Sequence record: PZ445473.1
DNA: 64,000 nt
Reading direction: 5' to 3' (one strand)
From: a phage
This document shows positions 28,484 to 51,323 of this stretch, piece after piece. The position numbers and the translations under genes are program-made. A model generated the notes under the pieces. It made no database searches, had not been told where the DNA came from, and saw nothing but the letters and a program-made list of their open reading frames with translations. Positions within the stretch are counted from its first letter, which is position 1. Every line of letters begins with the position of its first letter.

Positions 28484-28541
28484 ATTTTAATTTCCTTATT
28501 TAATTTGAAAGATTGTTGCTCTCTTTGAGCGGTTATGTATA

Positions 28542-28551
28542 GTATACATTA
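28542..28551 (-). promoter_or_regulatory. TAATGTATAC motif (minus strand), about 58 nt upstream of the SSB-like gene
   Basis: Plus GTATACATTA = minus TAATGTATAC; part of the perfect palindrome ATGTATAGTATACAT. Confidence 0.4.
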
Positions 28552-28614
28552 CGCTTATACCGATAAGAGTACTATATAATATAAGTATCTTTGGTAGTAG
28601 ATATAACACACTAG

Positions 28615-28626
28615 TAATGTATATAT
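28615..28626 (+). promoter_or_regulatory. TAATGTATATAT motif on plus strand inside a 420-nt gene-free region
   Basis: CTAGTAATGTATATATTG; oriented away from the SSB gene. Confidence 0.3.
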
Positions 28627-28905
28627 TGTATAGCTGATAAAGTTATTGCAGGCTTGTATATTGGGCAATTCATAGAATCCCTTGCAAGTACCGAAGGGCA
28701 GGAGCCACCTGCGAGATAAAAAATAGAGAATTAAGGAATCCTTGATTTAGGTTGTAGGGACTCCTAGGGACTTTGATTCTCTATTTAAAAGAATAAATAA
28801 TTACTATATCTAATACTAAACAGACTGAAACAAAGATAAGAAACTTCTTATAAATACTCATTACTTATCATCTAAATAGTTAACTAATCTCTGATATAAA
28901 GAAGT

Positions 28906-29094
28906 TTAAATCAAGCATCCATCACAAACATAGTCTCCACTAAGAGACTCTTGTAACAAACGATTTTGTTCCTCTGAATATAGAGAATTTACTAATTCTT
29001 TTAACTCTGAAAGAGTGATGAAATCAATAGTATTTCCATTATCTAAAATAGAAGAGTTAAGTAAATATTCATTGTCTTTAATTTTATTAATCAT
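28906..29094 (-). CDS. hypothetical small protein
   Basis: 62-aa ORF. Confidence 0.35.
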   Translation of the reverse strand: MINKIKDNEYLLNSSILDNGNTIDFITLSELKELVNSLYSEEQNRLLQESLSGDYVCDGCLI

Positions 29095-29391
29095 TCTTCA
29101 TTTCCTTTTACTTCAGCGTAGACTTTGATAATGCCCTTAAGAACTTCCTTAGAAGCAATAGCACTTTCTTCAGAGGTGTGAATAGTAGAAAACTCTTTCT
29201 TTCCAATCTTGTAAGTGTGAACCCAAATCATACTTATTCCTCGTATTCCCAATTTCTTTCATAATATCCAGAGTTATAATTTAGAGCGCATCTCTCAGCC
29301 TCTTCTATGTCATCAGTGTTTAGGATATTTACCCACCCACCAACTTCATCAAAACCTTCTTCCTCTTCGTTAAACCATACACTATACTTTT

Positions 29392-29784
29392 TCATCGAAT
29401 CACCAAAGGCTCTTCAGAGTACACAGGAGCGGCTATTTCTACAGGAGGTGCTGCCCTAAGGTCATTAAGTCTTACTCCCTTCAGCATCCCATCTAGGTGG
29501 TCCTTTTTGGGTATTCCAACAGGGAAGTCGTCAATCCAGATATCTACAAAGAAACCTAACTGGCGACATACGTCATCTTTCTGAACACCATTGCAAAAGA
29601 TGATAGGAATCTGCAAACGCTCTGCATCAATCTTAATGTCATGATTATCATACCCATTAGGCTCTGCAAAGCGATAAGTTACAAAACGTACATCATAACC
29701 TTTGGCTTGCATTAATGCCACCACAGATCGCCACAGCTCTTTATCTGAGGTGTAAGTATCATCGTAATCTAAACCAATATTCAT
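29392..29784 (-). CDS. hypothetical protein
   Basis: 130-aa ORF. Confidence 0.45.
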   Translation of the reverse strand: MNIGLDYDDTYTSDKELWRSVVALMQAKGYDVRFVTYRFAEPNGYDNHDIKIDAERLQIPIIFCNGVQKDDVCRQLGFFVDIWIDDFPVGIPKKDHLDGMLKGVRLNDLRAAPPVEIAAPVYSEEPLVIR

Positions 29785-34876: not shown

Positions 34877-35233
34877 TCATACTGGTTGATTGCTCTTGTT
34901 AGTACCCACACTTTCATTATTCTTCTCTTTATGAAGTCTATAAACAGCTGTCGCCATGCAAGCAACAGCTTCATTGTGTGGGAGATGCATCCCTGTAGAA
35001 CCATCCCAATCTTTGAACTCATTGTCAAAGACTCCGGTAGGCTCTGGATACAGAGCTTGCAGCTCAACCAAATCATTAGCAACTTGTTGCCATTTATCAT
35101 CAGACCAGATAGGGTCATCCAACCAGTAATACAAATAGGAATGGATGATTAATTGCCTTCTGTGCCGATTAATTACTTCAGCGGGACTTATCTCACTTCC
35201 ATTTGAAGTCCTAAATGTATTACTGTCAATCAT
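34877..35233 (-). CDS. hypothetical protein
   Basis: 118-aa ORF. Confidence 0.4.
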   Translation of the reverse strand: MIDSNTFRTSNGSEISPAEVINRHRRQLIIHSYLYYWLDDPIWSDDKWQQVANDLVELQALYPEPTGVFDNEFKDWDGSTGMHLPHNEAVACMATAVYRLHKEKNNESVGTNKSNQPV

Positions 35234-36428: not shown

Positions 36429-36992
36429 TTAGTAAGACACATCACCACTTGAGTGGGACATGTTGCTCTTGACGAAGTAGCAATACTTGCCAAGACCTTC
36501 ATTGATTTCTTGAAGCATACTTTGATCGACTGGATAAGTGGCTAAATCGCCATCAAACTCATCCATCTTCTCAATAATACACATCAAGGTCATGCACATA
36601 TCAGAGAGCATACCGTCCATGTCTAGATCAGCGTTACCCTCTGAGAACCAAGCATGAGAGAGGTAGTTAGCTGCTGTAGCATCCACTTTAACACAGTGGT
36701 AACGCATACGTTCAGCAATACGATCTCCTACTTGTCGTGCGTAATCTTCCAGCTCGTCAAACATACCATGAACACCCTGAAATCCTGCACCAGAGACGTT
36801 CCAGTGGTAGTTTTTAGCTTTGATGTGCAAGAGTTCCATATTAGCTTGTAAGCAGCTCAGGATGTGTTCTAGGCTGTTTCCGCTAATCATGCCTTGCATT
36901 GTTTCAAGGCGAGAGATTGAAAGCTCAGACCGGTCTAACATGCTGTAGCTGTCACGACCAATCTCAGGTAAATCAAAGACATTCTTATGCAT
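36429..36992 (-). CDS. Dps/ferritin-like protein
   Basis: HIKAKNYHWNVSGAGFQGVHGMFDELEDYARQVGDRIAERM matches the Dps ferroxidase-region pattern; start taken at ATG 36992. Confidence 0.5.
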   Translation of the reverse strand: MHKNVFDLPEIGRDSYSMLDRSELSISRLETMQGMISGNSLEHILSCLQANMELLHIKAKNYHWNVSGAGFQGVHGMFDELEDYARQVGDRIAERMRYHCVKVDATAANYLSHAWFSEGNADLDMDGMLSDMCMTLMCIIEKMDEFDGDLATYPVDQSMLQEINEGLGKYCYFVKSNMSHSSGDVSY

Positions 36993-37314
36993 TTGGGTTT
37001 TCTCCATCAAGTTCAACTGAGTTAGCAACGTTACGTGCAATATTGTCCATTACCTGCTGGGTAATTACGATGCAGTTCTGTGGGTCTACTGACTTAGAAC
37101 GCCCCATTTCTGGGTCATACACCTTAACACGCTTAGCAGTTGAACCTGTAACCTGAAGAACCTTCAACAGATATCCCTGATTACCGATAGACCAAGCAAC
37201 AACATCACGATTCTTGATAAAGCGACCAAGCATATCACGATGATAAAACTGTTGCATCACCTTGGATTTTGTAATCTCTTCAGTGGGCGGGGCCACTTTA
37301 CTCAAATCTAACAT
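36985..37314 (-). CDS. hypothetical protein
   Basis: 109-aa ORF. Confidence 0.4.
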   Translation of the reverse strand: MLDLSKVAPPTEEITKSKVMQQFYHRDMLGRFIKNRDVVAWSIGNQGYLLKVLQVTGSTAKRVKVYDPEMGRSKSVDPQNCIVITQQVMDNIARNVANSVELDGENPNA

Positions 37315-38139: not shown

Positions 38140-39384
38140 TTAGTTGTTTGTTTCTATGTCAAAAGAGAATCCACGACCCGCTTCATCGGCAAACCGAGCT
38201 GTATGGGTTTGAGGCTCTAATACTTCAGGGTTGTTAGCAATAAAGCGAGCGGCGAGATTATCTTCCACATCTTGACTAGAGGGCTGACGTGCACTAACGT
38301 TGAAGCCATTCGGTCGACCACGAGAAGGACTAGACATCCATCTTTCCATAGAATCACTTGTAACACCAAGAGCTTCTTCAAAAGATGTTCTACGGGTAGA
38401 GCTTAGATTTCGTGCTTCATGTGCCACTCTTGCAGGGGTTACAAATAACCCTTCAATTGCATTATGTCGATTAGGTTCATCTTCCCGACCAAGGAGATCA
38501 CCTCCTGCATTAGTTGTTAAGTTTGTCAACCCTTCAGACCAATACGCACGAATCTGGCTAGAGCCATAAATGCCTGACATTAACTGAATCTCTTCATAAG
38601 GTATATCAAAGAATCGACTCATGTCTCGGTTAACACAATACTGAGCACTTGTTGTATCCTCAATAAGAGCAACCTGACCCCGTTCGTTGACCAGATGACT
38701 AACCGGCTGAGGTGTGGGAAGGTGTCGAGTTTGGGCCATGTATTGATATGCAGCTGCTGGATAGGAAAATCTCAACACTTGCGAGTTAGGCCACTTCTTG
38801 TGAACATACCTGATTTCACGACTAGAAACAACCACTGGACAAGGGGCGGTCATAGCCAAGTATCCATGAGGGGTCATGAATAAGTTATCAAGAGTCATCG
38901 CACCACGGCACATCATAGGAAAATTATCCAATACCTCTTCAATAGAAGTAGGATAATTAAACATGAATTGGATACGAACACCATTCCACTGAAACTCAAT
39001 AATATCAGTGAATGTTAATTGAGAACCCCCAGCATATGGCTCATCTGTAGCTTCAACAAGAAGAGATGAATACTCAATATCTTGTGATTCAAGCCATTCC
39101 TTCACATTACTTTCAATCTCCCGCCCAAGCATTTGCCACTGCTCGGTTGGGATAAAGGTGTTTCGAGTTCTTGGTGTTTGTCCTCTGACAATAAAGATAT
39201 CGATGTCATGTGGAGCTGTGTTATTAAGAACAGCATCACGAATAGCCCCACCAGTAATGATAGGGCAAATACCATCTGGAATCAAGTTGTTGTTAATCAA
39301 CTGTTCAATGAAGTGACGACCAACAGTGATATCAGGTTGTTGAGCAACCTTATCTTCAATTCGGTTAATCGGGATAACAATCAT
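38140..39384 (-). CDS. nucleotidyltransferase of the CCA-adding/poly(A) polymerase type
   Basis: ITGGAIRDAVLNNTAPHDIDIF matches the GG.VRD...DiDi head-domain motif; ATG at 39384 is adjacent to the upstream stop. Confidence 0.45.
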   Translation of the reverse strand: MIVIPINRIEDKVAQQPDITVGRHFIEQLINNNLIPDGICPIITGGAIRDAVLNNTAPHDIDIFIVRGQTPRTRNTFIPTEQWQMLGREIESNVKEWLESQDIEYSSLLVEATDEPYAGGSQLTFTDIIEFQWNGVRIQFMFNYPTSIEEVLDNFPMMCRGAMTLDNLFMTPHGYLAMTAPCPVVVSSREIRYVHKKWPNSQVLRFSYPAAAYQYMAQTRHLPTPQPVSHLVNERGQVALIEDTTSAQYCVNRDMSRFFDIPYEEIQLMSGIYGSSQIRAYWSEGLTNLTTNAGGDLLGREDEPNRHNAIEGLFVTPARVAHEARNLSSTRRTSFEEALGVTSDSMERWMSSPSRGRPNGFNVSARQPSSQDVEDNLAARFIANNPEVLEPQTHTARFADEAGRGFSFDIETNN

Positions 39385-39385
39385 T

Positions 39386-39940
39386 TTACATTTTCCAATA
39401 TAATGAAGGTGGGTCATAAGGATCAAATCCTGTGTGTTCACACAAGTATTTATAAACCTTAACAGTTAAGTTAACGTCCTGTTCACAGTAAGTAAACATA
39501 TCTTCAGTGAAAGCATCCCATGCTTCCTCCTGCTCACCGTAATCTCCTTTAAGTTCCCCTAAGAACTCACCCCATTGCTTCAAACCGTGACCTCTTGGGC
39601 CATGTCTAGGGTCGCCTTTCGGATACTCAGGACTGTCACCAATACGGTCAGGTTTAAGATATCGACTAAGACACAGAGTGTCGAAGACGTTAAAACGATA
39701 TTTAATCAGATTGGGATATATTTTCTTCAGAGCACAAAGGTCGAAGTCAATAATGTTATGGCCCACGAGCACATCAGCTTCTGTAAGTTTACGAATCCCA
39801 TCTTCAATTTGGTGAGGCCTGTAGCCCCACCTTTCACCAGTTTCAACATCGAAAATGTAAATACACCATACTTTAGTTATATCATCGTACAGTGCGTTAC
39901 TTTCGATATCAAATGCAAACACTTTCTTTTTCTTTACCAC
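39386..39940 (-). CDS. 3'-5' exonuclease (DEDD family), stand-alone
   Basis: Exo I FAFDIESN, Exo [10 protein letters not shown], Exo III YCEQDV. Confidence 0.7.
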
Positions 39941-41724
39941 GGTGAAGCTCCATCTGCTTGGTTAACGAGAGAAGCTGCATCCTCTCCGTTAGTTAAAACG
40001 AATGGATTATCTTCATCAACTTCAAAGTCTTCCCTTTCTACAAGTCTACCGGTTTCACTGATATACTTAGTATAACAGACACCAGTCTGACCGTAGTTAC
40101 GTTCTTTCAGTAATCGAATGACCGAGAGGTTCTTAGCTAAGCCATCAGCTTGCTTGTCACGTTCAAAGCCAATGATGCACTGACACCAACGCATAAGGGA
40201 ACGAGAACCAGTGAACTGCACTTCACGTACCTGTCCACCTTCTTCGTGAGGAGCACCACCTGCCGGGGCATTAAGGTGAGATAACACGAAAGCTGTAAAG
40301 TCTAATTCTTTACACATACCAGCAAGCTCGGAAGCAATCTTACTGATTTCAGTGTTAATCTCTGAAGGTGTTAAATGAGATACCAGAGCGGTAATGTTAT
40401 CAAGGATGATGAACTTACACTGGTTTTCAACTACCCAGAAACGTATACACTGTTTAATGTCTTCCCATTCATTCTGTCCGAAGTTGTCATACAAGAAGAA
40501 TTTATCTGCATAACGAAGTGCTTCATTACGCAAATCTTCCTCGTCATATTCAACATCAGGTCGGTGGAAAGGGATTGATGCTGACTTACCAGCAATATTC
40601 TTAACAGACATGCCTACCTTCTCTTCCAAGAAGAAGCCACCCCCATTAAAACCATGCTCTAAGCACAGATGAGCAACCAGTTCGTGAGCAATTAGTGTTT
40701 TACCACTGCCTACACCACCACCTATTGCTACCACCTCTCCCCATCGAATACCGAAGGTCATCTCATTCAGAGTTTTCCACGGATAGGGAATACCCCACTC
40801 CGCTTTCTTCAGAGCATCATCAAGGCAATCAAAGATTGTTACAGCGCCAGCAGGAGATTCCCGCTTTGCTGAATACTTGAGAATGTTGAATAACTCTTGA
40901 CCACGACCAGACAGAAGCATGTCATTCGCATCCTTAATCTCTTTCTCCACACCGTTGTATGGGAAGGTTCCTTTAGGGATACGAGCAAATTTGACATGAG
41001 GGAATAAAGAACGACCTTTTGTTAAAGCTATCTCACCTGCATCGTCATTGTCCATGCAGAGCACAACCTCCTCAAAACCATTTACGAAGTCCCGATTACG
41101 AGACAACACAGAAGAGATTGAACCTGCACCGAACGGTAAAGAAACACATGCTGGTTTAATGTTTGTTGCATTTGTAAAAGCTGTAAGGACGTGGAAACCA
41201 GACATACAAGATAGCGGGTCTTCAAAAATGAATAGCTTCTTGTTGTACACATCCCCACGTTGAGCTTGTGCCATACCAAAAAGATCTGCTTCTTTTACAC
41301 TACCTACGTAATAGAACTTCTTACTATCTAGCAGCTTAACCTCGTAACCAACAATGTTTCCATCACGTTCACGAGGAAAGAAGTAGCTGTCCGGAGTCTG
41401 TCCATCAGTCTGACTTAGACCGATGCGACACTCAAAACGCTCTGATACAGCTTTAGGGATTAGACGTCGAGTGAGTTCACCCTGAGGAAGTTCTAAGCAA
41501 TCATCTAAGACTTCTCTTAACTCTTCAGGGGATAACTCTTTCTTCTCATTTGGAGTAGGTGCAGTGCCCTTTTCGAACACTTCGTAATTCCCACAACGGT
41601 TACAACTTCCCCACTCCTCACCTGTCTCTTCGTTACGGAAGAGAATCATGTGGTTGTGGGTTTTATCACGACCATGAGAGATACATTCTTTACAACCTGT
41701 GTCTCCCAAAATGATCTTTGACAT
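39934..41724 (-). CDS. bifunctional primase-helicase
   Basis: N-terminal Cys-rich zinc motif (CKECISHG...CNRCG), central acidic MDNDDAGE, C-terminal Walker [10 protein letters not shown]. Confidence 0.8.
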
Positions 41725-41943: not shown

Positions 41944-42363
41944 TCAAGATTCACTTTTCAGATACTCTGACCAGTCGCCAGATTCAACCAGAACGTCTTG
42001 TTCTTCGTCGATGTGATAAATCCAAGCGATAACAGTTTCACCTGAGTCCATCTTAACTGGAATCTGAGTGCGTTGATAGAAACTATCTTCAGGGCTACGT
42101 TTGTTGTAACCTTCCAGTCGGTCATATGGACCTTCCAGACCTTCTTTGTCAGTAGCAAACACTTCTACACGAACAGGCTTATTGTTATTGCTGTGTGCGA
42201 GAGAGATGCTTGGGAAGTAGGAACCACCATAACGGAACAGATCAAAGTTGTCTTCAGTCCAACCTTCACCAATTGACTTAGCACCAGCTCGGTCATTAAC
42301 TAAATAGTTAGCTTGACCACGACGAAGAGAACCATAAGTTGCTACGTAAATTACTTCTGACAT
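41944..42363 (-). CDS. gamma-glutamyl cyclotransferase-like (GGCT/AIG2 fold) protein
   Basis: ATYGSLRRGQANY ... GSYFP ... YDRLEGY follows the GGCT-like YGS...G.YP...E pattern. Confidence 0.5.
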   Translation of the reverse strand: MSEVIYVATYGSLRRGQANYLVNDRAGAKSIGEGWTEDNFDLFRYGGSYFPSISLAHSNNNKPVRVEVFATDKEGLEGPYDRLEGYNKRSPEDSFYQRTQIPVKMDSGETVIAWIYHIDEEQDVLVESGDWSEYLKSES

Positions 42364-42869
42364 TATTTATACCTTTGTTGGTTTGTTTGGTTTATCCGAA
42401 CTAGCCTCCTCTTTCGAAGAGGCTAAAGCAGATTACTCTGTAATAAAGATTTTGATTACACCGCAGATTGCCGCACTTTCAAATACTGCAACAGCTTCAC
42501 TCCCTTGAAAAAAGGCCACCTTGCCATCAGAGAAGTTAAACATGTCGGCATCTAGGTCCATTGCTCGCATTTCACCAGCTGCATTGGTATCTTTAAACAG
42601 AACTTTATACTTATTCACAGATATGTTACTCCCTTGTCTTGTTGTGCTTCAGTGATGATACGTTCTACACATTCCATAGAATATTTATCACCACGTTTCA
42701 GAAAAGTTACAATTGCAGAGAACTGGTTGCCAATCATTCGCTGATTAGTGATACCCCATTCTTCACACAATTTACGCAACTCTTTACGAGAGCCTACAAT
42801 CAGAGGCTCTTTTTGTTCCATCATTCCATTTTGTACTAGATCTTCCAATGAAAACATATCCATATATCC

Positions 42870-44063
42870 TTAGTAGTTTACAACAGTACCATCATTCAGG
42901 GTAATGCTATTAATCTGCAACACACGACCAAGCTGACGATTACTGATTGGTGCGTTCCATCCAGAACGGTAGAAGTTACGACCGCAGAAGAACAAGATCA
43001 CATTACTTGCTACAATTGAACCATTCTCAGGGTGCTTAATGTTAGCGATATAATAACCACGACGAAGATTGCGACGGGTGATTGGAGTGATCTCTAACCC
43101 TTGCTCTTCAACTTGCATTGTTTCAGGAACAGGTTCCGAAGACTCTTCAGCAACTGGCTCAGCTGTCAATGCAGAGTTCTCATCACCTGCCGATTCAGCA
43201 GATTCTTCCACTTCTTCAACAGGCAGTTCGTAAGCAACACGGTAGTTAGGCTCAACTCCAGAGAAGCTCTTAACAAATTCAACGATGTTATGAGTGTAAG
43301 TTTCCAGAGTTGTACCAGTCAGGCCCGGAGCTGTATTGACTTCCAGAACCCAAGCGTTAGTTCCTTTACTGATCAGGTCAACAGCACCGAAGTTTAAACC
43401 TAGAGCAGATACAGCTTTGTGAGCTTGAATCAGAACTTGATCAGGAGGAGCTTCAGTGAATGCGTTAGAGTAAACCCAACCAGTGTGATGGTTACGAATA
43501 TCTTCACGATAGCTTTCCAGTTCACGATAACCGTTACGACGGATTTTCTTCTGAACGTAAGTGATAACGCCTTCGAACACATGAACACGCCACTCACGAC
43601 GTGGGCCTTGAATACCACGGGTATAGAGAGGGGCGGGAGCTATACCTTCACCTGGAAGACGAACAGTGATACCTTCTCCAGAATGACCATTCAAAATAGC
43701 ACGTTCATAAACAATACTATCCAGATTCCATTCTGACGCCTGAGCAGCACGGATTGAGTACTCTACAGTGGATACCCCAGCAGCTTCCAGAGTTTGAAAT
43801 GCTGTGATTTTGTTAGCCGCTCGGTTCAGAGCTTCAACAGGATTCAGTACAGTTGCACCACCAAAGAAAGAAGCATCATAACGACGGTTGCCATAGTTTA
43901 TAACAATATCACCAGTACGAGAACGATAACGAGAACCCTCTGATACCAGAGACATTACGTTAGCATTTAAGCGAAGTTCCTGAACCTTAGTATTGATTGC
44001 AGAAGTAAGTTCACGAACTGAATCAGAAGGGCCATAAGGAAGAACACGGATACGAGTAGTCAT
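42870..44063 (-). CDS. ATP-grasp fold enzyme
   Basis: GAVDLISKGTNAWVLEVNTAPGL matches the ATP-grasp C-terminal G.D.....VLEVN..PG motif. Confidence 0.55.
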   Translation of the reverse strand: MTTRIRVLPYGPSDSVRELTSAINTKVQELRLNANVMSLVSEGSRYRSRTGDIVINYGNRRYDASFFGGATVLNPVEALNRAANKITAFQTLEAAGVSTVEYSIRAAQASEWNLDSIVYERAILNGHSGEGITVRLPGEGIAPAPLYTRGIQGPRREWRVHVFEGVITYVQKKIRRNGYRELESYREDIRNHHTGWVYSNAFTEAPPDQVLIQAHKAVSALGLNFGAVDLISKGTNAWVLEVNTAPGLTGTTLETYTHNIVEFVKSFSGVEPNYRVAYELPVEEVEESAESAGDENSALTAEPVAEESSEPVPETMQVEEQGLEITPITRRNLRRGYYIANIKHPENGSIVASNVILFFCGRNFYRSGWNAPISNRQLGRVLQINSITLNDGTVVNY

Positions 44064-44508
44064 TGTTAGATACCTTTAAGTTTAAGAATTTCGTTACGAG
44101 TTTTTTGAATCTGAGCTTCAATTTCGAAGTAGTCATTGAACGCATCGTTCTCTACTTCATCGGATGGTGCATCAATCAGACCGAAAGCAAACGGATACAG
44201 CTTTCGCTGCTCCGTTACTAATTCGATATGAACTCCTATGTAATACTGTAGGAGAGTAATCTTCGGTTTCTTAGGAACCAGACTTAACATGAGGTTCTAC
44301 CTTAATGCCTTTAATTTTTACATAATCAGCAAGTACGTTATTGATCACCGTTGGGAATGGAACCTCAACTTGTGTCTCAAGTACTTGACCAATACCAGCT
44401 TGCATCCACTTCTGGATTGCACGAAGGTTATCACATCCTGTGCTCGTCATCGGGATACGTCGAGTAGTTACAACGTTATCCAACATCATTTTTCTGATTT
44501 CCATAAAC

Positions 44509-46539
44509 TTAACCTCTATTCAATGAACATTTAGGAGAATTACAATAAACTTGATTCATAGAACCAAGCGTACAACTTTCAGCATCGCGCCACGGAATCT
44601 GCTTAAAACACCCTGAGCAGTAGCCGAGGGTTGACCACATTGCTTTGGTGAAGTCAGTGCTTCGGTTTCCGTCGAAGCTGACAACAGTTTTTCGGAGAGC
44701 TGTTCGTGATTCAGGAAACACACCTGCTTTCTCAGCAGGTTCCTCCTTTTTTGGCTTAGTTGAGATTGCAAAAATACTGTTGCTACGTTTCTCAACATAA
44801 GCATCAACAACATCCTCCAGAGTAATGCCTGTCTGTTTCGCTGAGGAAGGTAATATAGTCATACGACCAATCATATCTTCAGTTACACGTAAAGCAAATT
44901 CAGGACGACGGGAGTTTGTTGTATCTGTTGCTTTAATCCAGACATAACCATCTTTGATCGTAGCATTAGATACTTTCTTCTTTATATCTACAGCGCAGAC
45001 TTTACAGATATCTTCACCACGAAGACGACTGAGTTCATCATCAAACTCGTTCTCTGTTTTAACTTCACCACAGATTTCACAAACACCAATAGGAGTTTCC
45101 TCCTCTTCTTCATCTTTAGGCTTAGTCAAACCTTCCAGACATTCAGGGTGCCAGTAGCATTGATATGCGAAGACTGCTTTAGGTGCATCCTTCCAATCAA
45201 TGTGTTTATCACAACCGCCACAATCACCATGAGAATGTGCTTCCCAGAATTTACGAGTGATAGTAACGCCATTCTTGTTGACGAAACTATCATTCATATC
45301 AAAAGGGATATCATCATCAAAGTCAGCAGTAGTTGACTCAGGCTCCTTTTTCTCCAGAGATGGGTCAACAAAACGACCTGCTGTGATCACTAAACGAACC
45401 ATAGCATTAACTTCGGAGATACAGGATACTGTCCCACGGTAAACAATTTTAGGGTCTTTCAGGGCATCCTGATAAGCCTTAATGTCTACGTTATGAACAT
45501 CACCTTCGATATACTCTTGAGATTTCTCATCGTAGATATAACCAATCATCTTACCACGAGAAGGAACAGCACCAGCAGTTGCATAAGGGACAAACTCATG
45601 TGGTGTGATCTCCACAGTCATGTCGCGGCGAATGTCAATGTTTCGATCGCTTGCGATTTTGTTTTGACTTACCACTGCGTTTCTTCGACGAACGTCTGCC
45701 GCTGTCACTCCCGGCTTCGTGTCGTAAGGATTGCTTGTACTGCTTTTTGAGGAACTTTGATAGTTGCTTTGGCTGTAGTTGTTCGAGTAGTAATTGCCCC
45801 AACGATTGATTACCGTAAAAACCGGAAGCTCGTGGGCGACCTCTTCAACTAGAGTCATGCTGTTGTTTGACACATCAAAGATGTATTCTGTACCAACTTT
45901 ACATTCAAAGTGCTCATCAATGCGATTCTTGTGAGACCTAGAACGCTTCAGAATCCACATCAACATATCTTCTTCAGAAGCACCAAACCAATCTCTGTTA
46001 CAACGTGCAAGATGGAAAGGACGCTCTTCATTACGGATGATATGAAGACGATTATCAGAAGCATCATGCCAGATTAAGGTGAAAGCACCATCCAGCTTTT
46101 GAATAGTCTCTGCTGCACCAATAGTGTTAATAGAGTGGCAGATGTTTTCACTGTCTACCTCGAAGTTTTTACTGTCAGGTAACAGGTCTTGGTTCATCAA
46201 GGTTCCGTTATGAACCAGAGTGATGTTACCGTGTTGGAAAGGATGGGCGTTCTTGGCGTTAACTGCACCTTTCGTTGCATGACGGCTGTGACCAACAATC
46301 CATGAAGGTGCTACAGTGTAAGCTGTTTCACCAGTGGTGTGCTTCTTGTACTCATCTTGAAGGATGAATGCGAAAGAAGGAAGTGCCTCTTTATAAGTGA
46401 AGACTTCTTTAGTGCTTTTACGCTGACCAAAGATACCAGAGGAGTGCTGTCCTCGGAATACTCCAGCATAAAAGAGTTGGTTAAATATATCTAAATCAGT
46501 GCTTGACAGATTACCGCCAGCTAATACGATGCCACAAAT
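44509..46539 (-). CDS. class II (Ntn) glutamine amidotransferase-domain protein with Cys-rich C-terminal region; apparent AUU start
   Basis: Frame is open upstream of the track start to 46539; encodes (I)CGIVLAGG...RGQHSSGIFG...GHSRHATKG...NAHPF...LVHNGT; Cys codon 46534-46536 is preceded by ATT and a TAG stop, with AGGTGG 8 nt upstream. Confidence 0.55.
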   Translation of the reverse strand: MCGIVLAGGNLSSTDLDIFNQLFYAGVFRGQHSSGIFGQRKSTKEVFTYKEALPSFAFILQDEYKKHTTGETAYTVAPSWIVGHSRHATKGAVNAKNAHPFQHGNITLVHNGTLMNQDLLPDSKNFEVDSENICHSINTIGAAETIQKLDGAFTLIWHDASDNRLHIIRNEERPFHLARCNRDWFGASEEDMLMWILKRSRSHKNRIDEHFECKVGTEYIFDVSNNSMTLVEEVAHELPVFTVINRWGNYYSNNYSQSNYQSSSKSSTSNPYDTKPGVTAADVRRRNAVVSQNKIASDRNIDIRRDMTVEITPHEFVPYATAGAVPSRGKMIGYIYDEKSQEYIEGDVHNVDIKAYQDALKDPKIVYRGTVSCISEVNAMVRLVITAGRFVDPSLEKKEPESTTADFDDDIPFDMNDSFVNKNGVTITRKFWEAHSHGDCGGCDKHIDWKDAPKAVFAYQCYWHPECLEGLTKPKDEEEEETPIGVCEICGEVKTENEFDDELSRLRGEDICKVCAVDIKKKVSNATIKDGYVWIKATDTTNSRRPEFALRVTEDMIGRMTILPSSAKQTGITLEDVVDAYVEKRSNSIFAISTKPKKEEPAEKAGVFPESRTALRKTVVSFDGNRSTDFTKAMWSTLGYCSGCFKQIPWRDAESCTLGSMNQVYCNSPKCSLNRG

Positions 46540-46618
46540 TTTCTAATCCACCTGAAGGGTAAACCCTTTCATCTAATTAACCTTTAAATTGTGCCCCTTC
46601 GTCAGAGGCACCCATTGA

Positions 46619-47722
46619 TTACAGCGCTTGCTCTAACTGATTTTCCAGATGATCTGGAATATATCCTGTGATGTTGTTATCACTGTGTCCTGACTCACGT
46701 AGCAAGTCAAAAATAGCACGGATACGCTGTTCTGATGCAGATCGTACAGTAGATAGGTCAGTTGTACGAAGCATAACCAGAATTTCTTGGTACAAGTTGT
46801 TAGCGTTCCCTCGAATATACCCAAGGAACCCATAGAAGTCTGGAATAAGACGTAAGTCAACAAGAACTTCTCCGTTGGAGTCGGTTCGACGTAAACGAAT
46901 ACGACCAGACTGCTCTACTTCATGAGAACGACAATACAAAACATCACGGGCCATACAATACCCTGAATGCAAATCCGATTCGTCCAGATTGTAATCCAGA
47001 GGAAGATAAGGAAGCATTGGGGCAAATCGTACAGTATTTAAATGCTCAATAAACTGGTCATTGCTCATCTCTGCGTTATCTAAAGCCAGCTTCTTCAACA
47101 TTAAGAAGCGGTTAACCAGATTGAGAAGTTGACCACGTTTCCACTTAGGCTCGCTGATACGAAACTCAATTGAGCCGTATTGGGCAAGTGGCAGAAGGTT
47201 CAGAGATGTATACTTATCCCATGAACGAACCAGACGGTTGAAGAACTCTTCACCGTCGTAGTTAAATGCGTCAGAGGCGTTCATTACCTGTGCTTGTACC
47301 ACTGCGAAAGCAGGGCAGAAGTTGCTACGGTAACGATGATAGCCTGAACACTTGAACAACATTTTTTCATAGAAGGTCCAAGCGAGGATGGTTTTCTTGA
47401 GGATATTACTATCAGCATCCCTCATATCCATATGAACGTGAGTAGAGCAACGCCAAGTCCCCTCGGCGTGCGATTCAGCTACTGCTTCACTCAGGTTGTT
47501 GATAGCGTCTAACAACTCCTGTCCATTGTAAGGTCGTGAACATACCATTTCACAACCATTACGCAGGGAACCATCCTCTGTACAATCCCACATATCTGCT
47601 TCAATATGGTCGGAACCTTCGAGTTCTAGTTCGATACCGATACCGCACTGAAGTGCAATTGAACTATGCGCCTCAGTTAAACGACCTTCTCGGTATCCAA
47701 AAGTTTGCGCTACAGTTGTCAT
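46619..47722 (-). CDS. glutamine synthetase-like amidoligase (Amidoligase_2-like)
   Basis: GIGIELELEG...EDGSL..GCEMVCSRP and THVHMD resemble amidoligase family motifs. Confidence 0.4.
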   Translation of the reverse strand: MTTVAQTFGYREGRLTEAHSSIALQCGIGIELELEGSDHIEADMWDCTEDGSLRNGCEMVCSRPYNGQELLDAINNLSEAVAESHAEGTWRCSTHVHMDMRDADSNILKKTILAWTFYEKMLFKCSGYHRYRSNFCPAFAVVQAQVMNASDAFNYDGEEFFNRLVRSWDKYTSLNLLPLAQYGSIEFRISEPKWKRGQLLNLVNRFLMLKKLALDNAEMSNDQFIEHLNTVRFAPMLPYLPLDYNLDESDLHSGYCMARDVLYCRSHEVEQSGRIRLRRTDSNGEVLVDLRLIPDFYGFLGYIRGNANNLYQEILVMLRTTDLSTVRSASEQRIRAIFDLLRESGHSDNNITGYIPDHLENQLEQAL

Positions 47723-48336
47723 AACGAATCCACCAACGTAATATTATAATTGCTAAGATTTTCAGAGATGTGATGAAAATGTTCCAGAAGTCGCATCGGT
47801 TGCTGACCATAAGAGTCACGAGGTGCTTCTAGATCTACTTGTCCTACCAGTGCACCTTTATAATGCACTTTACCATCTGTAGGGTTGATGTAAATGTAAC
47901 GAGTGACCAATCCATCAAACTCTGGATTGAACAAACTGTAAACCATCTCCCCAGAGATAGAACGACCAATCCCAGGAGCATTTCGAATCTTATTACCCAT
48001 TAAACCCTTTGCTCTCTGACGAACAGGGTTAATATGAGTCCAGCTCACAGTGTTACCGTTATGGAACAGATAACCAACATCAGGTGATTCAAGAATCAAG
48101 GTTGGGTCGAACACTGGAATATTCATCACAGTGTTTCGAAGATTCCCATGCTCGTTCTTGTACCACTGCTCTACAACAAAATACAGAGCCTGCTCTGCTT
48201 CGTGAGAGAAGTCATCGCTGCGGAAGTTACCGCTCTGCTCAACACCAATCACAAAACATGGAAGGTTGATATTACCTGCTCGTTTAGCAATCCATGTACC
48301 GTTATAGTAATGAGAAAAATCAGATACTAAGCTCAC
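47719..48336 (-). CDS. hypothetical protein (amidoligase cluster)
   Basis: 205-aa ORF; start overlaps the upstream stop. Confidence 0.45.
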   Translation of the reverse strand: MSLVSDFSHYYNGTWIAKRAGNINLPCFVIGVEQSGNFRSDDFSHEAEQALYFVVEQWYKNEHGNLRNTVMNIPVFDPTLILESPDVGYLFHNGNTVSWTHINPVRQRAKGLMGNKIRNAPGIGRSISGEMVYSLFNPEFDGLVTRYIYINPTDGKVHYKGALVGQVDLEAPRDSYGQQPMRLLEHFHHISENLSNYNITLVDSL

Positions 48337-48345
48337 GATAACCTC

Positions 48346-49152
48346 TTATGCTACCTGAAGGCGTTTAATCTGCTGGTCCGCTTCTTTAACGTTATTACCG
48401 TTAATGATTTCATGAAGCTTCTCAATCGGAAGGCGAGAGTGCAATGCCATCAGAGTGGACATGTCACACTGCTGAACAACCTTGTCAACCTGATCATAAA
48501 CAAACTTACGGTTTTCACGATCACTAATCCAGAAGTTAGACAGGGAACGATATTCAATACCATAGTCCTTGTAGCGGATTGCAGATGCTTTACCGTAGAG
48601 TTCTTTACGGCGAGTGTCTTTATCCATAATAACTGCTGGGAGGGATAGGAAGTAGTCACACAGCACACCCAGCATCATCTGAGTTTGCAGGGTGATATCC
48701 AAAGCACCAACTACGCCAAGATGTACGTGACCACCGGCAGTACGAAGCCCCTTATTTTGAGAAGTCGGGGATGGGTTCTTCTGACCAGTGAAAGCGTTGA
48801 AATCAGGAGTACATCCAAAGATGAACGCTGATTCATTGAAAGTCTTCATCTCTTCTTCAGTGAAGATGTGAGAGCTAACACCCGGAGCTGTTTCCATGTC
48901 CAGTTTGTTCAGGACATTATTGGTGAGATCGATACCACGTTGCATGTTGTCATTAAACGCTTCAAAACCACTCTGTGGGTCAATATCAAACTCAGCCAGT
49001 ACGTTGTCCTCTTGAAGACGAACATCCTTAGCCAGAGCGATCTTATCGTCCTTAGAACAACCTAACAGACCAGCTACAGAAGTGATGATTCCTTTGCTGG
49101 TACGAACGAACATTTCCGGATCCGATCCTATTAAGAATTTGCGCTTAGTCAT
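48346..49152 (-). CDS. hypothetical protein, possible second COOH-NH2 ligase-type enzyme
   Basis: FLIGSDPEMFV and GGHVHLGV loosely resemble ligase E..E/H.H motifs. Confidence 0.35.
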   Translation of the reverse strand: MTKRKFLIGSDPEMFVRTSKGIITSVAGLLGCSKDDKIALAKDVRLQEDNVLAEFDIDPQSGFEAFNDNMQRGIDLTNNVLNKLDMETAPGVSSHIFTEEEMKTFNESAFIFGCTPDFNAFTGQKNPSPTSQNKGLRTAGGHVHLGVVGALDITLQTQMMLGVLCDYFLSLPAVIMDKDTRRKELYGKASAIRYKDYGIEYRSLSNFWISDRENRKFVYDQVDKVVQQCDMSTLMALHSRLPIEKLHEIINGNNVKEADQQIKRLQVA

Positions 49153-50116
49153 TGTAATACTCCACTAGTTCAGAAAAGAGAGATGAGATTGTGTTACCGA
49201 TTTCTTCAGGATTAAGACCAGAATCTATTCCAGTACGCTGAATTATTCGTGCTGTAAAGTTTTGTACTGTAATGTTTTCCAACTTATTATCTATTGCTTC
49301 ACGTTTGTGACCATAACAGTTGGACCAGAGTTTTAACCACTCTGACATTGTTTCATACTCATCTGGATCTTGATCTTTAGCACGAGCAAATCTTCGTAAG
49401 ACATCTGTGTTGTGGTTACGAACATAACCATTCTCGTTGTCACCAACACCGAAGGGGTTTTGAACCCATACTTGCTTCGTGTATTCATCAGAGTCAACAA
49501 CCAAAGGAAGGAATGCTGCTGCTGACATATTGTTGTCAATAACAACAGACGTGCTTTCACTACTCCCATTGGAAGCTCCTCGTTGAGACCACCTACCAAA
49601 GAAGTCACGACCCAACCCAGCTAACAACAGAGCGATGCCAATGCGTTTACGCTTCAGCCACTCTTCCCTGTCTTCAATTCCTTCTGCTAGGAAATCCATT
49701 CCACGATACTGCCCTTCCAAAATGCTACGGAAGAGCATAAGTCCTGTGAAGATTTGATCTGCTGGATGCTCACGGAGGTTGACAGCTACGCTATTCGCTG
49801 AAGTGATTGTGAATACATCGCGATAGCAAGACATGGAGTTCATAATATCTGCTGTTTCAACCAAGTTCTTTTCAATATAAGATGCATCATGACCGTGAAA
49901 AGAGTGAGTCCAGTAATTCAGCATCTCCAGTTGCAAGTTGATATCACGGTTGAAGCGTCTATAACGCCCCTCTTCCATGATAACTTCGCCATTAATATCG
50001 CTTACACATTGGCCTTGCATGTAGTTGTGAATACCGAAGCACCCACGACCTAAGAACTTCTGTTCCCCTAAATCTTGTTGAAGATTCAGAGGTACGATCG
50101 TTGTGGAGATTGACAT
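49145..50116 (-). CDS. hypothetical protein (amidoligase cluster)
   Basis: 323-aa ORF. Confidence 0.45.
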   Translation of the reverse strand: MSISTTIVPLNLQQDLGEQKFLGRGCFGIHNYMQGQCVSDINGEVIMEEGRYRRFNRDINLQLEMLNYWTHSFHGHDASYIEKNLVETADIMNSMSCYRDVFTITSANSVAVNLREHPADQIFTGLMLFRSILEGQYRGMDFLAEGIEDREEWLKRKRIGIALLLAGLGRDFFGRWSQRGASNGSSESTSVVIDNNMSAAAFLPLVVDSDEYTKQVWVQNPFGVGDNENGYVRNHNTDVLRRFARAKDQDPDEYETMSEWLKLWSNCYGHKREAIDNKLENITVQNFTARIIQRTGIDSGLNPEEIGNTISSLFSELVEYYND

Positions 50117-50126
50117 AACTAACCTT

Positions 50127-51323
50127 TTATTTTCCTAAAAATAATCCGCTCATAATACCATCCCACTCAGAGGATGGAATCACTGAATACTCCGAACTTT
50201 GGTCCAGAGTTCCACTACTAAATCTCTGAACAATGTTATAGATGTTGAACAGGTCTTTAGCCTCAGTACGGATACCGTAGACTAATTTATCAGATGTTCT
50301 TTCATCTTTAGATACCCGACGAGCAAAATTAACCAGAAGGTTGTCACATTTAAGCGTTTCTGACCCACTCTCTACCAAATCAGGGTGCATCACAGGCAAG
50401 AACATCGAGTTATTGACTCGCAACTCTGCTGTTTCGTCATTCTCATAATGAATCCACTTAAAGTCTTCATCACGGAAGTGACCACAACCGTCTCTGTACG
50501 ACTGCTGACGCCAAGGCACTTTAAATGCTTTAGCATACTTATCAGCCATGCCAACTGTAAACAACGACGCTGGGAAGATGCAAGCATCCCAATCATTACC
50601 GACCAGAGTTGCTTTCGTTTCACCCAAGAGGTTAGTATAAGTGCTAATCATTCGGGAATAAATATAAGCCTGAAGGATTGTCCAACCTTCAATCAACCAT
50701 TTATGAAGGAAGGTTTCAACTTGACTCTCTTCGTCTTCGCAATAGAAGGTTCGGTCTAGCATTAAATAGAACAGACAACGATCAGCAGGGATGTTCTCAG
50801 TTGCTACACCCATAAAACCTTTCTCGTGCCAGCGTAAACAGGAGGGACGATCTTTGTCCACAAATGCTTCCATAGCTTCCAGTACAGCACGAGGTGAGGT
50901 TTGGTATTCAGGGTTTTTACTATTCCAACGATCAATGTTGTTCTTAGGAGGTGTGTCTTCATCTTCATACGAACACCAACTTAAAGCTTCAGATACGTGC
51001 TTTTCATCACACCAATGCCTAAAACCTAACATCTTCATGTGAGTTCCGGAGTTCCAGATATGCTTGATTTTACACATATCCATCTCTCGGCTTAACAGGA
51101 ACTCTTCCCCATCAGCGCTACGAACGTTAGCTTCTTCATTCCACACTCGAACGTGCATATTCCACCCATAAGTTGCCTCATACGTGTTAGGGTCGAAGTA
51201 TTCATATTCGTCATCATCTTCATCAACGCCACCGTTATAGTTGCGGAGCTGAAGGAATCCATAGCAAGGAGGATAGACCGTTAAAACTCTACCTTCAATA
51301 TCTTCTAATGTTACTGGAAACAT
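50127..51323 (-). CDS. hypothetical protein (amidoligase cluster)
   Basis: 398-aa ORF. Confidence 0.45.
   Translation of the reverse strand: MFPVTLEDIEGRVLTVYPPCYGFLQLRNYNGGVDEDDDEYEYFDPNTYEATYGWNMHVRVWNEEANVRSADGEEFLLSREMDMCKIKHIWNSGTHMKMLGFRHWCDEKHVSEALSWCSYEDEDTPPKNNIDRWNSKNPEYQTSPRAVLEAMEAFVDKDRPSCLRWHEKGFMGVATENIPADRCLFYLMLDRTFYCEDEESQVETFLHKWLIEGWTILQAYIYSRMISTYTNLLGETKATLVGNDWDACIFPASLFTVGMADKYAKAFKVPWRQQSYRDGCGHFRDEDFKWIHYENDETAELRVNNSMFLPVMHPDLVESGSETLKCDNLLVNFARRVSKDERTSDKLVYGIRTEAKDLFNIYNIVQRFSSGTLDQSSEYSVIPSSEWDGIMSGLFLGK

Follow-up and report, generated by a model that had tools for sequence, protein, structure and literature searches.

A cluster of eight genes on the minus strand of phage sequence PZ445473.1 (positions 41944-51323 of the 64,000-nucleotide stretch that was analysed, hereafter the window) is, judged by its gene families, an already catalogued and computationally predicted phiEco32-type phage amidoligase system. 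We think it rather probable that the enzymes of this cassette act in the cytoplasm during infection, using ATP to form gamma-glutamyl-type amide bonds on an acceptor and trimming these bonds afterwards. As far as can be read from conserved residues, it provides three ATP-dependent carboxylate-amine ligases of different families with their catalytic residues kept, and a glutaminase that appears complete in its glutamine-binding residues and has no fused synthase domain. An initial annotation of the window had listed eight open reading frames (ORFs) and had read amide-bond-forming or amide-bond-modifying folds from short motifs. All eight ORFs were recovered at the same coordinates, the motifs (YGSLRRG, RLEGY, VLEVNTAPGL, CGIVLAGG, HSRHAT, NAHPF, GIELELEG and EDGSL) were all present in the proteins, and the folds were upheld by profile searches and conserved catalytic residues.

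Comparison of the 9.5-kb region with GenBank gave 100% identity to Escherichia phage JacquesWildberger_Bas92 (PQ850610.1), 98.5-99.5% identity to Bas93, Bas94 and LAMP, and about 94% identity to many phiEco32-like Kuravirus genomes; 66 phage records cover at least 80% of the region. By these similarities the phage is a relative of phiEco32. In PQ850610.1 the cassette is annotated with a gamma-glutamyl cyclotransferase, a "ribosomal protein S6 glutaminyl transferase", an aminotransferase, an amidoligase and a COOH.NH2 ligase. The description of the cluster as an uncharacterised system therefore holds for experiment and not for cataloguing. That comparative work had predicted such sets in phages was borne out, PF14395 being named after phiEco32 and later papers citing Iyer et al. 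2009 and Hardies et al. 2013. The remark that no substrate had been assigned also stands, since full-text literature searches turned up no experiment on any component.

Conservation and distribution of the cassette

We analysed 90 phage loci with iterated local hidden Markov models (HMMs). The COOH-NH2 ligase and Amidoligase_2 were found in all 90, the class-II glutamine amidotransferase (GATase) in 88, a protein of 205 amino acids (aa) in 85 and the ATP-grasp protein in 83, and several of the loci that miss a component are short or truncated contigs. The order COOH-NH2 ligase, 205-aa protein, Amidoligase_2 was kept throughout the loci, and a primase/helicase gene is located downstream of the cassette in 60 of the 90. 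The treatment of these genes as one unit is in line with their synteny and with a core present in 83-90 of the loci; scattering in relatives was not seen.

The common order is two unknown proteins of ~300 aa, the COOH-NH2 ligase, an unknown protein of ~190-205 aa, Amidoligase_2, the class-II GATase, the ATP-grasp protein, a GGCT-like protein and the primase/helicase. The same order is found in Pseudomonas phages UFV-P2 and PaP4 and in Salmonella phage 7-11 (the gene table of UFV-P2 gives the order of the Bas92-type cluster), and O4 is likewise syntenic. Under the name "peptidoglycan modification cassette" of RIO-1-like podoviruses, Duhaime et al. 2017 (with reference to Hardies et al. 2013) list a set of seven genes common to RIO-1, phiEco32, 7-11, PA11, tf, MR299-2, LUZ24, PaP3 and CW02. 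Compared with the phiEco32-type system as defined by PF14395 and PF12224, the cluster in the window has the same gene families and differs in nothing essential, so that we regard it as a member. Its local features are an ATT start and triplicated zinc-ribbon motifs in the GATase, a C-terminal extension of the ATP-grasp protein and lineage-specific small ORFs.

The COOH-NH2 ligase was found by tblastn in 307 phage records. The phages that carry it have Pseudomonas, Escherichia, Vibrio, Aeromonas, Proteus, Salmonella, Cronobacter and Klebsiella hosts and include one crAss-like phage; in terms of phage taxonomy the carriers span Gordonclarkvirinae, Grimontviridae, Bruynoghevirus, Zobellviridae, Lahexavirus and the crAss-like phage. 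A profile scan of IMG/VR added at least 495 contigs that encode a relative of the ligase. Among 185,579 species-representative genomes only 53 loci with the ligase were found, nearly all of them on contigs of metagenome-assembled genomes (MAGs), many of which are about the size of a phage genome, and these contigs include the cassette; the module is thus essentially confined to phages. The cassette order was also found in 26 longer MAG contigs.

Gamma-glutamyl cleavage

The gene at 41944-42363 encodes a GGCT/AIG2-like gamma-glutamyl(amine) cyclotransferase of 139 aa, as indicated by Pfam (GGACT, PF06094, 1.6e-17) and by phrog_2520 (5e-45). All 45 homologues that were compared keep Y10-G11-x-L13 and the catalytic E84, and the YGSL motif is present in the protein of the window. 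Such a GGCT protein is encoded in 44 of the 90 loci and a ~200-aa Peptidase_C26 protein (Pfam, 1e-16) in 44 as well: 40 loci have GGCT only, 40 have Peptidase_C26 only, four have both and six have neither. The C26 gene lies directly upstream of that for the COOH-NH2 ligase in half of the phage loci, and in many the ATP-grasp gene is next to that for GGCT. Enzymes of the GGCT and of the Peptidase_C26 family cleave gamma-glutamyl amides. This common activity is, on the present sequence comparison, the strongest clue to the chemistry of the cassette.

A reduced variant was found in five MAG contigs (L126, L130, L135, L136 and L137), where the order is COOH-NH2 ligase, Peptidase_C26, GGCT, Peptidase_C26 and where no Amidoligase_2, ATP-grasp or class-II GATase gene was detectable nearby. 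The existence of this variant ties the COOH-NH2 ligase to gamma-glutamyl cleavage, and the variant may represent a minimal module of gamma-glutamyl ligase and hydrolase. In Salmonella phage 7-11 (L002) and Aeromonas phage 4_4572 (L008) the GGCT gene is displaced by several kb; in these larger relatives genes for nicotinamide phosphoribosyltransferase and ribose-phosphate pyrophosphokinase (NAD salvage) lie within a few kb of the cassette or directly follow the gene for the ATP-grasp protein.

The three ligases

The 268-aa protein encoded at 48346-49152 is matched by the Pfam family COOH-NH2_lig (PF14395, "Phage phiEco32-like COOH.NH2 ligase-type 2", 2.2e-8, above the gathering score), which belongs to the GCS2/glutamine-synthetase (GS)-like superfamily, and by phrog_3815 (2e-118). 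Residues D11, E13, E54, G113-C114, R137, H142, H144, R182, E200 and R202 are invariant in 11 diverse phages. This ORF was one of four in which the initial annotation could place no motif; it falls in a named family.

Amidoligase_2 (46619-47722, 367 aa) is likewise predicted to be a GS-like carboxylate-amine ligase (PF12224 at 6e-8; phrog_7469 at 2e-157). Over 92 sequences E31, E33, E35, D50-G-S-L-R54, E58, H95, H97, E119, R130 and E186-F-R188 are conserved. For neither of these two ligases was a sequence relative found in the Protein Data Bank (PDB), whether with the single sequence or with a profile.

The third candidate ligase is the 397-aa RimK/Ddl-like ATP-grasp carboxylate-amine ligase encoded at 42870-44063. 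The assignment was made because of the match to phrog_2599 (1e-182), weak PDB matches to Ddl and RimK (E 0.002-0.2) and the conservation of ATP-grasp residues in 84 homologues (K85, R121, G129xG131, E157, R159, K173, D229, E241 and N243); those that contact ATP or Mg (K85, G129xG131, E157, K173, D229, E241 and N243) are kept in at least 98% of them. From about residue 270 to 397 the protein continues with a highly acidic linker rich in Glu, Ser and Pro and then a C-terminal domain of ~80 aa, which has a PHROG of its own (phrog_20552, residues 316-397) and is missing from the shorter ATP-grasp homologues (~240-290 aa) of most other phages.

The glutaminase

The class-II (Ntn) glutamine amidotransferase (44509-46539, 676 aa) is complete only if translation starts at a rare ATT codon (46539-46537), directly before the Cys codon (ATT-TGT), with an in-frame TAG two codons upstream (46537-46545, minus strand) and a GGTGGA Shine-Dalgarno-like motif ~9 nucleotides (nt) upstream. 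A mechanical ORF list gives the protein only as a 563-aa version with a TTG start. A frameshift or an intron in the gene was ruled out, as the ORF is intact from the ATT after the in-frame TAG. The reading of this protein as an amidotransferase that opens with Cys was thus correct, with Cys2 directly following the initiator; 86-88% of 91 homologues start with M-C-G, and the other phages mostly use a canonical start codon.

Pfam recognises GATase_6 (PF13522, 3.2e-15) in the N-terminal region, and C2, R29-G30, H84, R86, T89, H110-N111-G112 and D129 are conserved in the 91 sequences. A PDB search with the single sequence gave no match. A profile of the N-terminal domain did match GlmS (1.7e-22) and PurF (3e-20), with end-to-end alignment to their glutaminase domains, and EgtC was among the weaker matches. 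The glutaminase part (~1-240) is followed by a low-complexity linker, beta-rich segments and three CxxC...CxxC zinc-ribbon-like motifs. These C-terminal ~430 aa are variable and barely alignable, with a mean column identity of 11%, and contain no recurrent Pfam family beyond generic zinc ribbons, so that no fused synthase (acceptor) domain could be recognised in them. An S1/OB identity of the beta-rich region was considered and was not supported, 68 C-terminal regions giving sporadic generic zinc-ribbon matches in Pfam and aligning poorly.

Proteins without a named family

The 205-aa protein (47719-48336) has a conserved position between both GS-like ligases. In an AF2 model (pLDDT 75.5) small beta-barrel elements of Tudor/KOW/Sm-like type flank residues 84-126, which are modelled as disordered, forming a flexible basic loop with Lys and Arg, yet, the start Met aside, contain four of the six best-conserved residues. 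The model gave no match to an enzyme-like fold, and the protein is probably an adaptor or carrier and not an enzyme. PDB sequence searches with this protein, the 323-aa protein and the 398-aa protein gave no match.

Directly upstream of the COOH-NH2 ligase gene lies the gene for the 323-aa protein (49145-50116), a member of a fast-evolving family that is always found at this place. The predicted fold is confident, of mixed alpha/beta type, has no solved relative and is not glycosylase-like; its longest structural alignments, weak ones, were to PafA and Dop. The family diverges fast and keeps its position: only 23 representatives were found among 1.84 billion proteins, a homologue of ~23-28% identity occupies the same place on an unrelated contig, and in 20 further loci the genes immediately upstream of that for the ligase are related to the family according to hhalign (95% probability). 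Matches in BFVD were uncharacterised proteins of Cronobacter phage GAP52, Aeromonas phages LAh_8 and 4_4572, Citrobacter phage CVT22 and Salinivibrio phage CW02, of which CW02, CVT22 and 4_4572 are documented carriers of the cassette. Nine stretches of a 1945-aa protein (P0058) match profile positions 212-246 of the family (E 1.6e-9), and the segment around WVQNPFGVGDNENGYVRNH may be a repeat unit that is used elsewhere.

The acidic 398-aa protein (50127-51323) matches phrog_13063 and no Pfam family. It was found in nine of the 90 loci and is restricted to Gordonclarkvirinae and near relatives. Tandem pairs of paralogues are located upstream of the ligase in phage 7-11, Aeromonas phages and crAss-like phages. 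The 398-aa protein is possibly a distant paralogue of the 323-aa protein, given that hhalign connects it to the upstream family through a third family (58-61% probability). A direct hhalign comparison of the two gave a probability of 0.4%.

Four small ORFs of 61-82 aa are interleaved among the eight main genes. Those of 61 and 82 aa between the GGCT and ATP-grasp genes (42433-42863) are lineage-specific and hypothetical in PQ850610.1. Among the first 11 loci they occur only in a close relative, and the 61-aa ORF has a hydrophobic C-terminal stretch (KD19 1.93). ORFs of 74 and 77 aa lie between the ATP-grasp and GATase genes (44066-44504, minus strand; the 77-aa ORF at 44271-44504). The family of the latter recurs in 19 of the 90 loci, always between GATase and ATP-grasp, with R15, P18, D25, P49 and P51 conserved.

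A proposed pathway and its precedents

Several known systems pair enzymes of these kinds. In butirosin biosynthesis BtrJ is an ATP-grasp gamma-glutamyl ligase, and BtrG is a GGCT-like enzyme that removes the group as 5-oxoproline. In putrescine utilisation by E. coli PuuA is a GS-like gamma-glutamylputrescine synthetase, and PuuD is a Peptidase_C26 gamma-glutamyl hydrolase. The cassette resembles BtrJ/BtrG in pairing an ATP-grasp ligase with an enzyme of AIG2/GGCT fold and adds two GS-like ligases and a glutaminase. It differs in having no acyl-carrier protein or aminoglycoside genes, and sequence kinship exists only at the level of fold families. The pairing of a GS-like ligase with a C26 hydrolase, as in PuuA/PuuD, is found in half of the phage loci; in the window GGCT replaces C26, oxidase and dehydrogenase steps are absent, and the genes are part of a phage replication module instead of a catabolic operon. 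A stand-alone glutaminase or Ntn amidohydrolase next to a separate ATP-dependent ligase is shared with MurT/GatD (amidation of iso-glutamate in lipid II) and with EgtA/EgtC of the ergothioneine pathway. However, GatD is a class-I GATase and MurT a Mur ligase, neither of which families occurs in the cassette, and in comparison with EgtC and GatD the phage GATase keeps a full GlmS/PurF-like glutaminase site.

By analogy with these systems and with PafA, we infer the following pathway. Each of the three ligases would form one amide bond via an acyl-phosphate, as expected from the chemistry of their families. The COOH-NH2 ligase and Amidoligase_2 may act as a complex, in line with the invariant gene order and the overlapping stop and start codons, and the 205-aa beta-barrel protein would bridge these two GS-like ligases or offer its flexible basic loop as a carrier. 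The glutaminase would either provide ammonia in trans to an acyl-phosphate made by a ligase, converting a carboxylate to a carboxamide as in MurT/GatD, or act as an EgtC-like gamma-glutamyl amidohydrolase. The gamma-glutamyl group would be installed and later removed by an enzyme of GGCT/C26 type, as in BtrJ/BtrG or PuuA/PuuD. The fast-evolving parts (the family of the 323- and 398-aa proteins and the zinc-ribbon C-terminus of the GATase) would fit the conserved chemistry to a lineage-specific target. The acceptor should bear an amine or a carboxylate. A macromolecule or an envelope precursor seems to us a more likely target than a free metabolite; the variable GATase tail and the fast-evolving upstream family suggest that a macromolecule specific to the lineage is contacted.

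Several observations weigh against this pathway. The ATP-grasp protein stays below the Pfam gathering scores, with 16.4 bits for RimK (cut-off 21, E 0.007) and 17.5 bits for Ddl_C (cut-off 24, E 0.003). GGCT and C26 are not strict alternatives, as both are present in the four viral loci mentioned above and in several MAG contigs. The 323-aa protein may be an enzyme and not a specificity adaptor, because polar residues are invariant in it (C26, N31, D120, R130, E187, Q219, Y231 and R233). Matches to sigma-70-like promoters were not enriched (23 found, 26.5 expected). Finally, the substrates, the order of the steps and the role of the glutaminase follow only from family chemistry.

It is possible, though unlikely, that the cassette instead alters peptidoglycan-type linkages (a gamma-glutamyl bond, an amidation or a D-Ala-D-Ala-like bond) on cytoplasmic cell-wall precursors, changing the envelope and blocking superinfection. 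The enzymes do mirror stem-peptide chemistry, with a Ddl-like ATP-grasp protein and gamma-glutamyl-specific enzymes, a glutaminase could amidate iso-Glu or meso-diaminopimelate as MurT/GatD does, and all the proteins are cytoplasmic, where the UDP-MurNAc-peptide precursors arise. On the other hand, the cassette contains no Mur ligase (Pfam), transpeptidase, flippase or membrane protein, and its linkage in the 60 loci is to primase/helicase and replication genes and not to lysis or envelope genes. These are moreover virulent phages with short latent periods, which would have little obvious gain from remodelling the sacculus. The proposal itself is attributed, in the citing statements of later papers, to Iyer et al. 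2009 (credited there with the idea that amidoligase and GATase modify the cell wall and so prevent superinfection) and to Hardies et al. 2013, and 17 years after it was made no experimental support was found in the literature. Peptide tagging, in which a protein of the phage or the host would receive Glu or a short peptide, as with RimK, Pup or tubulin glutamylases, is unlikely as well. Candidate targets would then be factors of replication or translation, or the 205-aa protein as carrier, with GGCT or C26 reversing or trimming the tag. The RimK-like ATP-grasp protein and the 205-aa protein with its basic loop and without an enzyme fold fit such a scheme, and so does the variability of the GATase C-terminus and of the 323-aa family, as expected of parts that contact macromolecules; enzymes of the GGACT type are known to act on epsilon-(gamma-glutamyl)-lysine. 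However, a search across the loci gave no small, disordered protein of Pup type that ends in a conserved Glu or Gln; the small ORFs are lineage-specific and the recurrent 77-aa protein has a C-terminus that is not acidic, and three different ligases plus a glutaminase exceed the machinery of known tagging systems. The closest precedents, PuuA/PuuD, BtrJ/BtrG and EgtA/EgtC (a GCS2 ligase with an Ntn amidohydrolase), all belong to small-molecule pathways, which would speak for a free product such as a gamma-glutamyl amine, a polyamine conjugate or a short non-ribosomal peptide, made for DNA condensation, host takeover or counter-defence and with gamma-glutamylation as a transient protecting group. 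Although EgtC is among the PDB matches of the GATase profile, all the enzymes are soluble and later papers list the cassette genes as auxiliary metabolic genes, we regard this as rather unlikely: a fixed metabolite pathway would not usually include a conserved non-enzymatic adaptor, zinc-ribbon tails that vary or an accessory family that evolves fast, and no transporter or precursor-supply gene is linked to the loci.

Another explanation starts from the BASEL paper, according to which Gordonclarkvirinae are remarkably resistant to restriction-modification (RM) systems without a known genome-modification pathway. The cassette might put an amino-acid-derived amide group on a base of the phage DNA or of an RNA (tRNA, for instance). 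The side chain would be built by the three ligases together with the glutaminase, the zinc-ribbon tail and the 205-aa barrels would bind the polynucleotide, and the modification might explain the resistance; we hold both the modification and this account of the resistance to be quite improbable. Site avoidance cannot explain resistance to EcoRV, EcoRI, EcoKI and EcoP1, since the window carries their sites (29, 7, 6 and, in both orientations, 87, respectively), those for EcoRV, EcoKI and EcoP1 without depletion. The position of the cassette in the replication module, beside the primase/helicase, speaks for this reading, as do the zinc-ribbon motifs of the GATase and, in the 205-aa protein, the basic loop and the barrels of Tudor/KOW/Sm-like type, and amidoligase and amidotransferase genes are co-associated with thymidine-hypermodification genes in viromes (Lee et al. 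2021). Thymidine hypermodification clusters likewise consist of phage-borne tailoring enzymes in a replication region, but their defining genes (5-HMUDK, aGPT-Pplase, pyridoxal-phosphate and radical-SAM enzymes; Lee et al. 2018, 2021) were not detected here, and a Pfam scan of the cassette and of ten more large ORFs from the minus-strand arm gave no 5-HMUDK-type P-loop kinase, aGPT-Pplase or TET/JBP protein. Thymidylate synthase is represented solely by an ordinary ThyX (PF02511, 9e-44), encoded beside dCTP deaminase, and no ThyA-like dUMP hydroxymethylase was found. The fold of the 323-aa protein also does not fit, the resemblances to beta-barrels and zinc ribbons are weak and generic, and the cassette is present in LUZ24-like and Zobellviridae phages too, for which no report of modified DNA was found. 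The BASEL paper itself links a possible modification to dCTP deaminase and a nucleotidyltransferase and not to the amidoligase cassette, and the resistance could stem from an unrecognised anti-restriction protein.

Other arguments were considered and set aside. Over the whole window Dcm sites (CCWGG) are depleted (4 against ~74 expected), as are GATC sites (129 against 238 expected), and there are no sites for PstI, KpnI, SacI and NcoI. Site avoidance as a general cause of RM resistance fits PstI, KpnI, SacI, NcoI and Dcm and fails for EcoRV, EcoKI and EcoP1. The occurrence of the cassette in an archaeal virus was not used as an argument against a role in peptidoglycan, as the host in PMC11706807 is a computational assignment only and the genome encodes a muramoyl-alanine amidase.

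Gene layout and other features of the window

The genes of the cluster are closely packed, with intergenic gaps of -20 to +11 nt save for two of 69 and 79 nt. No transmembrane segment was found in any of the eight proteins. The primase/helicase gene (39934-41724, minus strand, as annotated in PQ850610.1) is the immediate downstream neighbour and serves as context, outside the pathway; it confirms the earlier placement of the cluster in the replication arm.

Other genes of this arm have unusual features. The 433-aa protein annotated as 'nucleotidyltransferase' (38140-39441, minus strand) has only a weak match to the PolyA_pol/CCA-adding head domain (E 0.002), and its gene sits between those for dCTP deaminase and a separate DNA polymerase exonuclease subunit. 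The gene annotated 'DNA binding protein' (36429-37040, minus strand) encodes a match to a ferritin-like domain (2.9e-7), and a stand-alone NAD+-binding Ia domain of DNA ligase (PF22745, 2.5e-35; 118 aa) without the ligase catalytic domain is encoded at 34877-35233 (minus strand). CAGCAG occurs 86 times in the window against 21 expected, with a strand split of 26 to 60.

The offset between ORF coordinates in the window and in PQ850610.1 is 3722 below ~28.5 kb and 3721 above ~29.4 kb, which implies an intergenic difference of 1 nt (window ~28484-29392). Outside the compared region the two sequences may thus not be strictly identical.

Implications

As far as our searches show, several properties of the cassette seem not to have been stated in the literature: the universal presence of a 205-aa protein that does not look like an enzyme, the alternation of GGCT and Peptidase_C26 between phages, the position-conserved family of the 323-aa protein with a fold that has no solved relative, and a glutaminase that lacks a synthase domain and has a zinc-ribbon tail.

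Few phage enzyme modules without an assigned function are as widespread as this cassette, which is almost absent from cellular genomes, and some papers repeat the cell-wall guess, which dates to 2009, as fact. The copy described here belongs to a BASEL phage whose host is E. coli K-12 with a restored O-antigen, which makes gene deletion and mass spectrometry feasible. Identification of the acceptor would give a function to five or six protein families together and could bring to light a new way in which phages take over the host, tag proteins or protect their genome.

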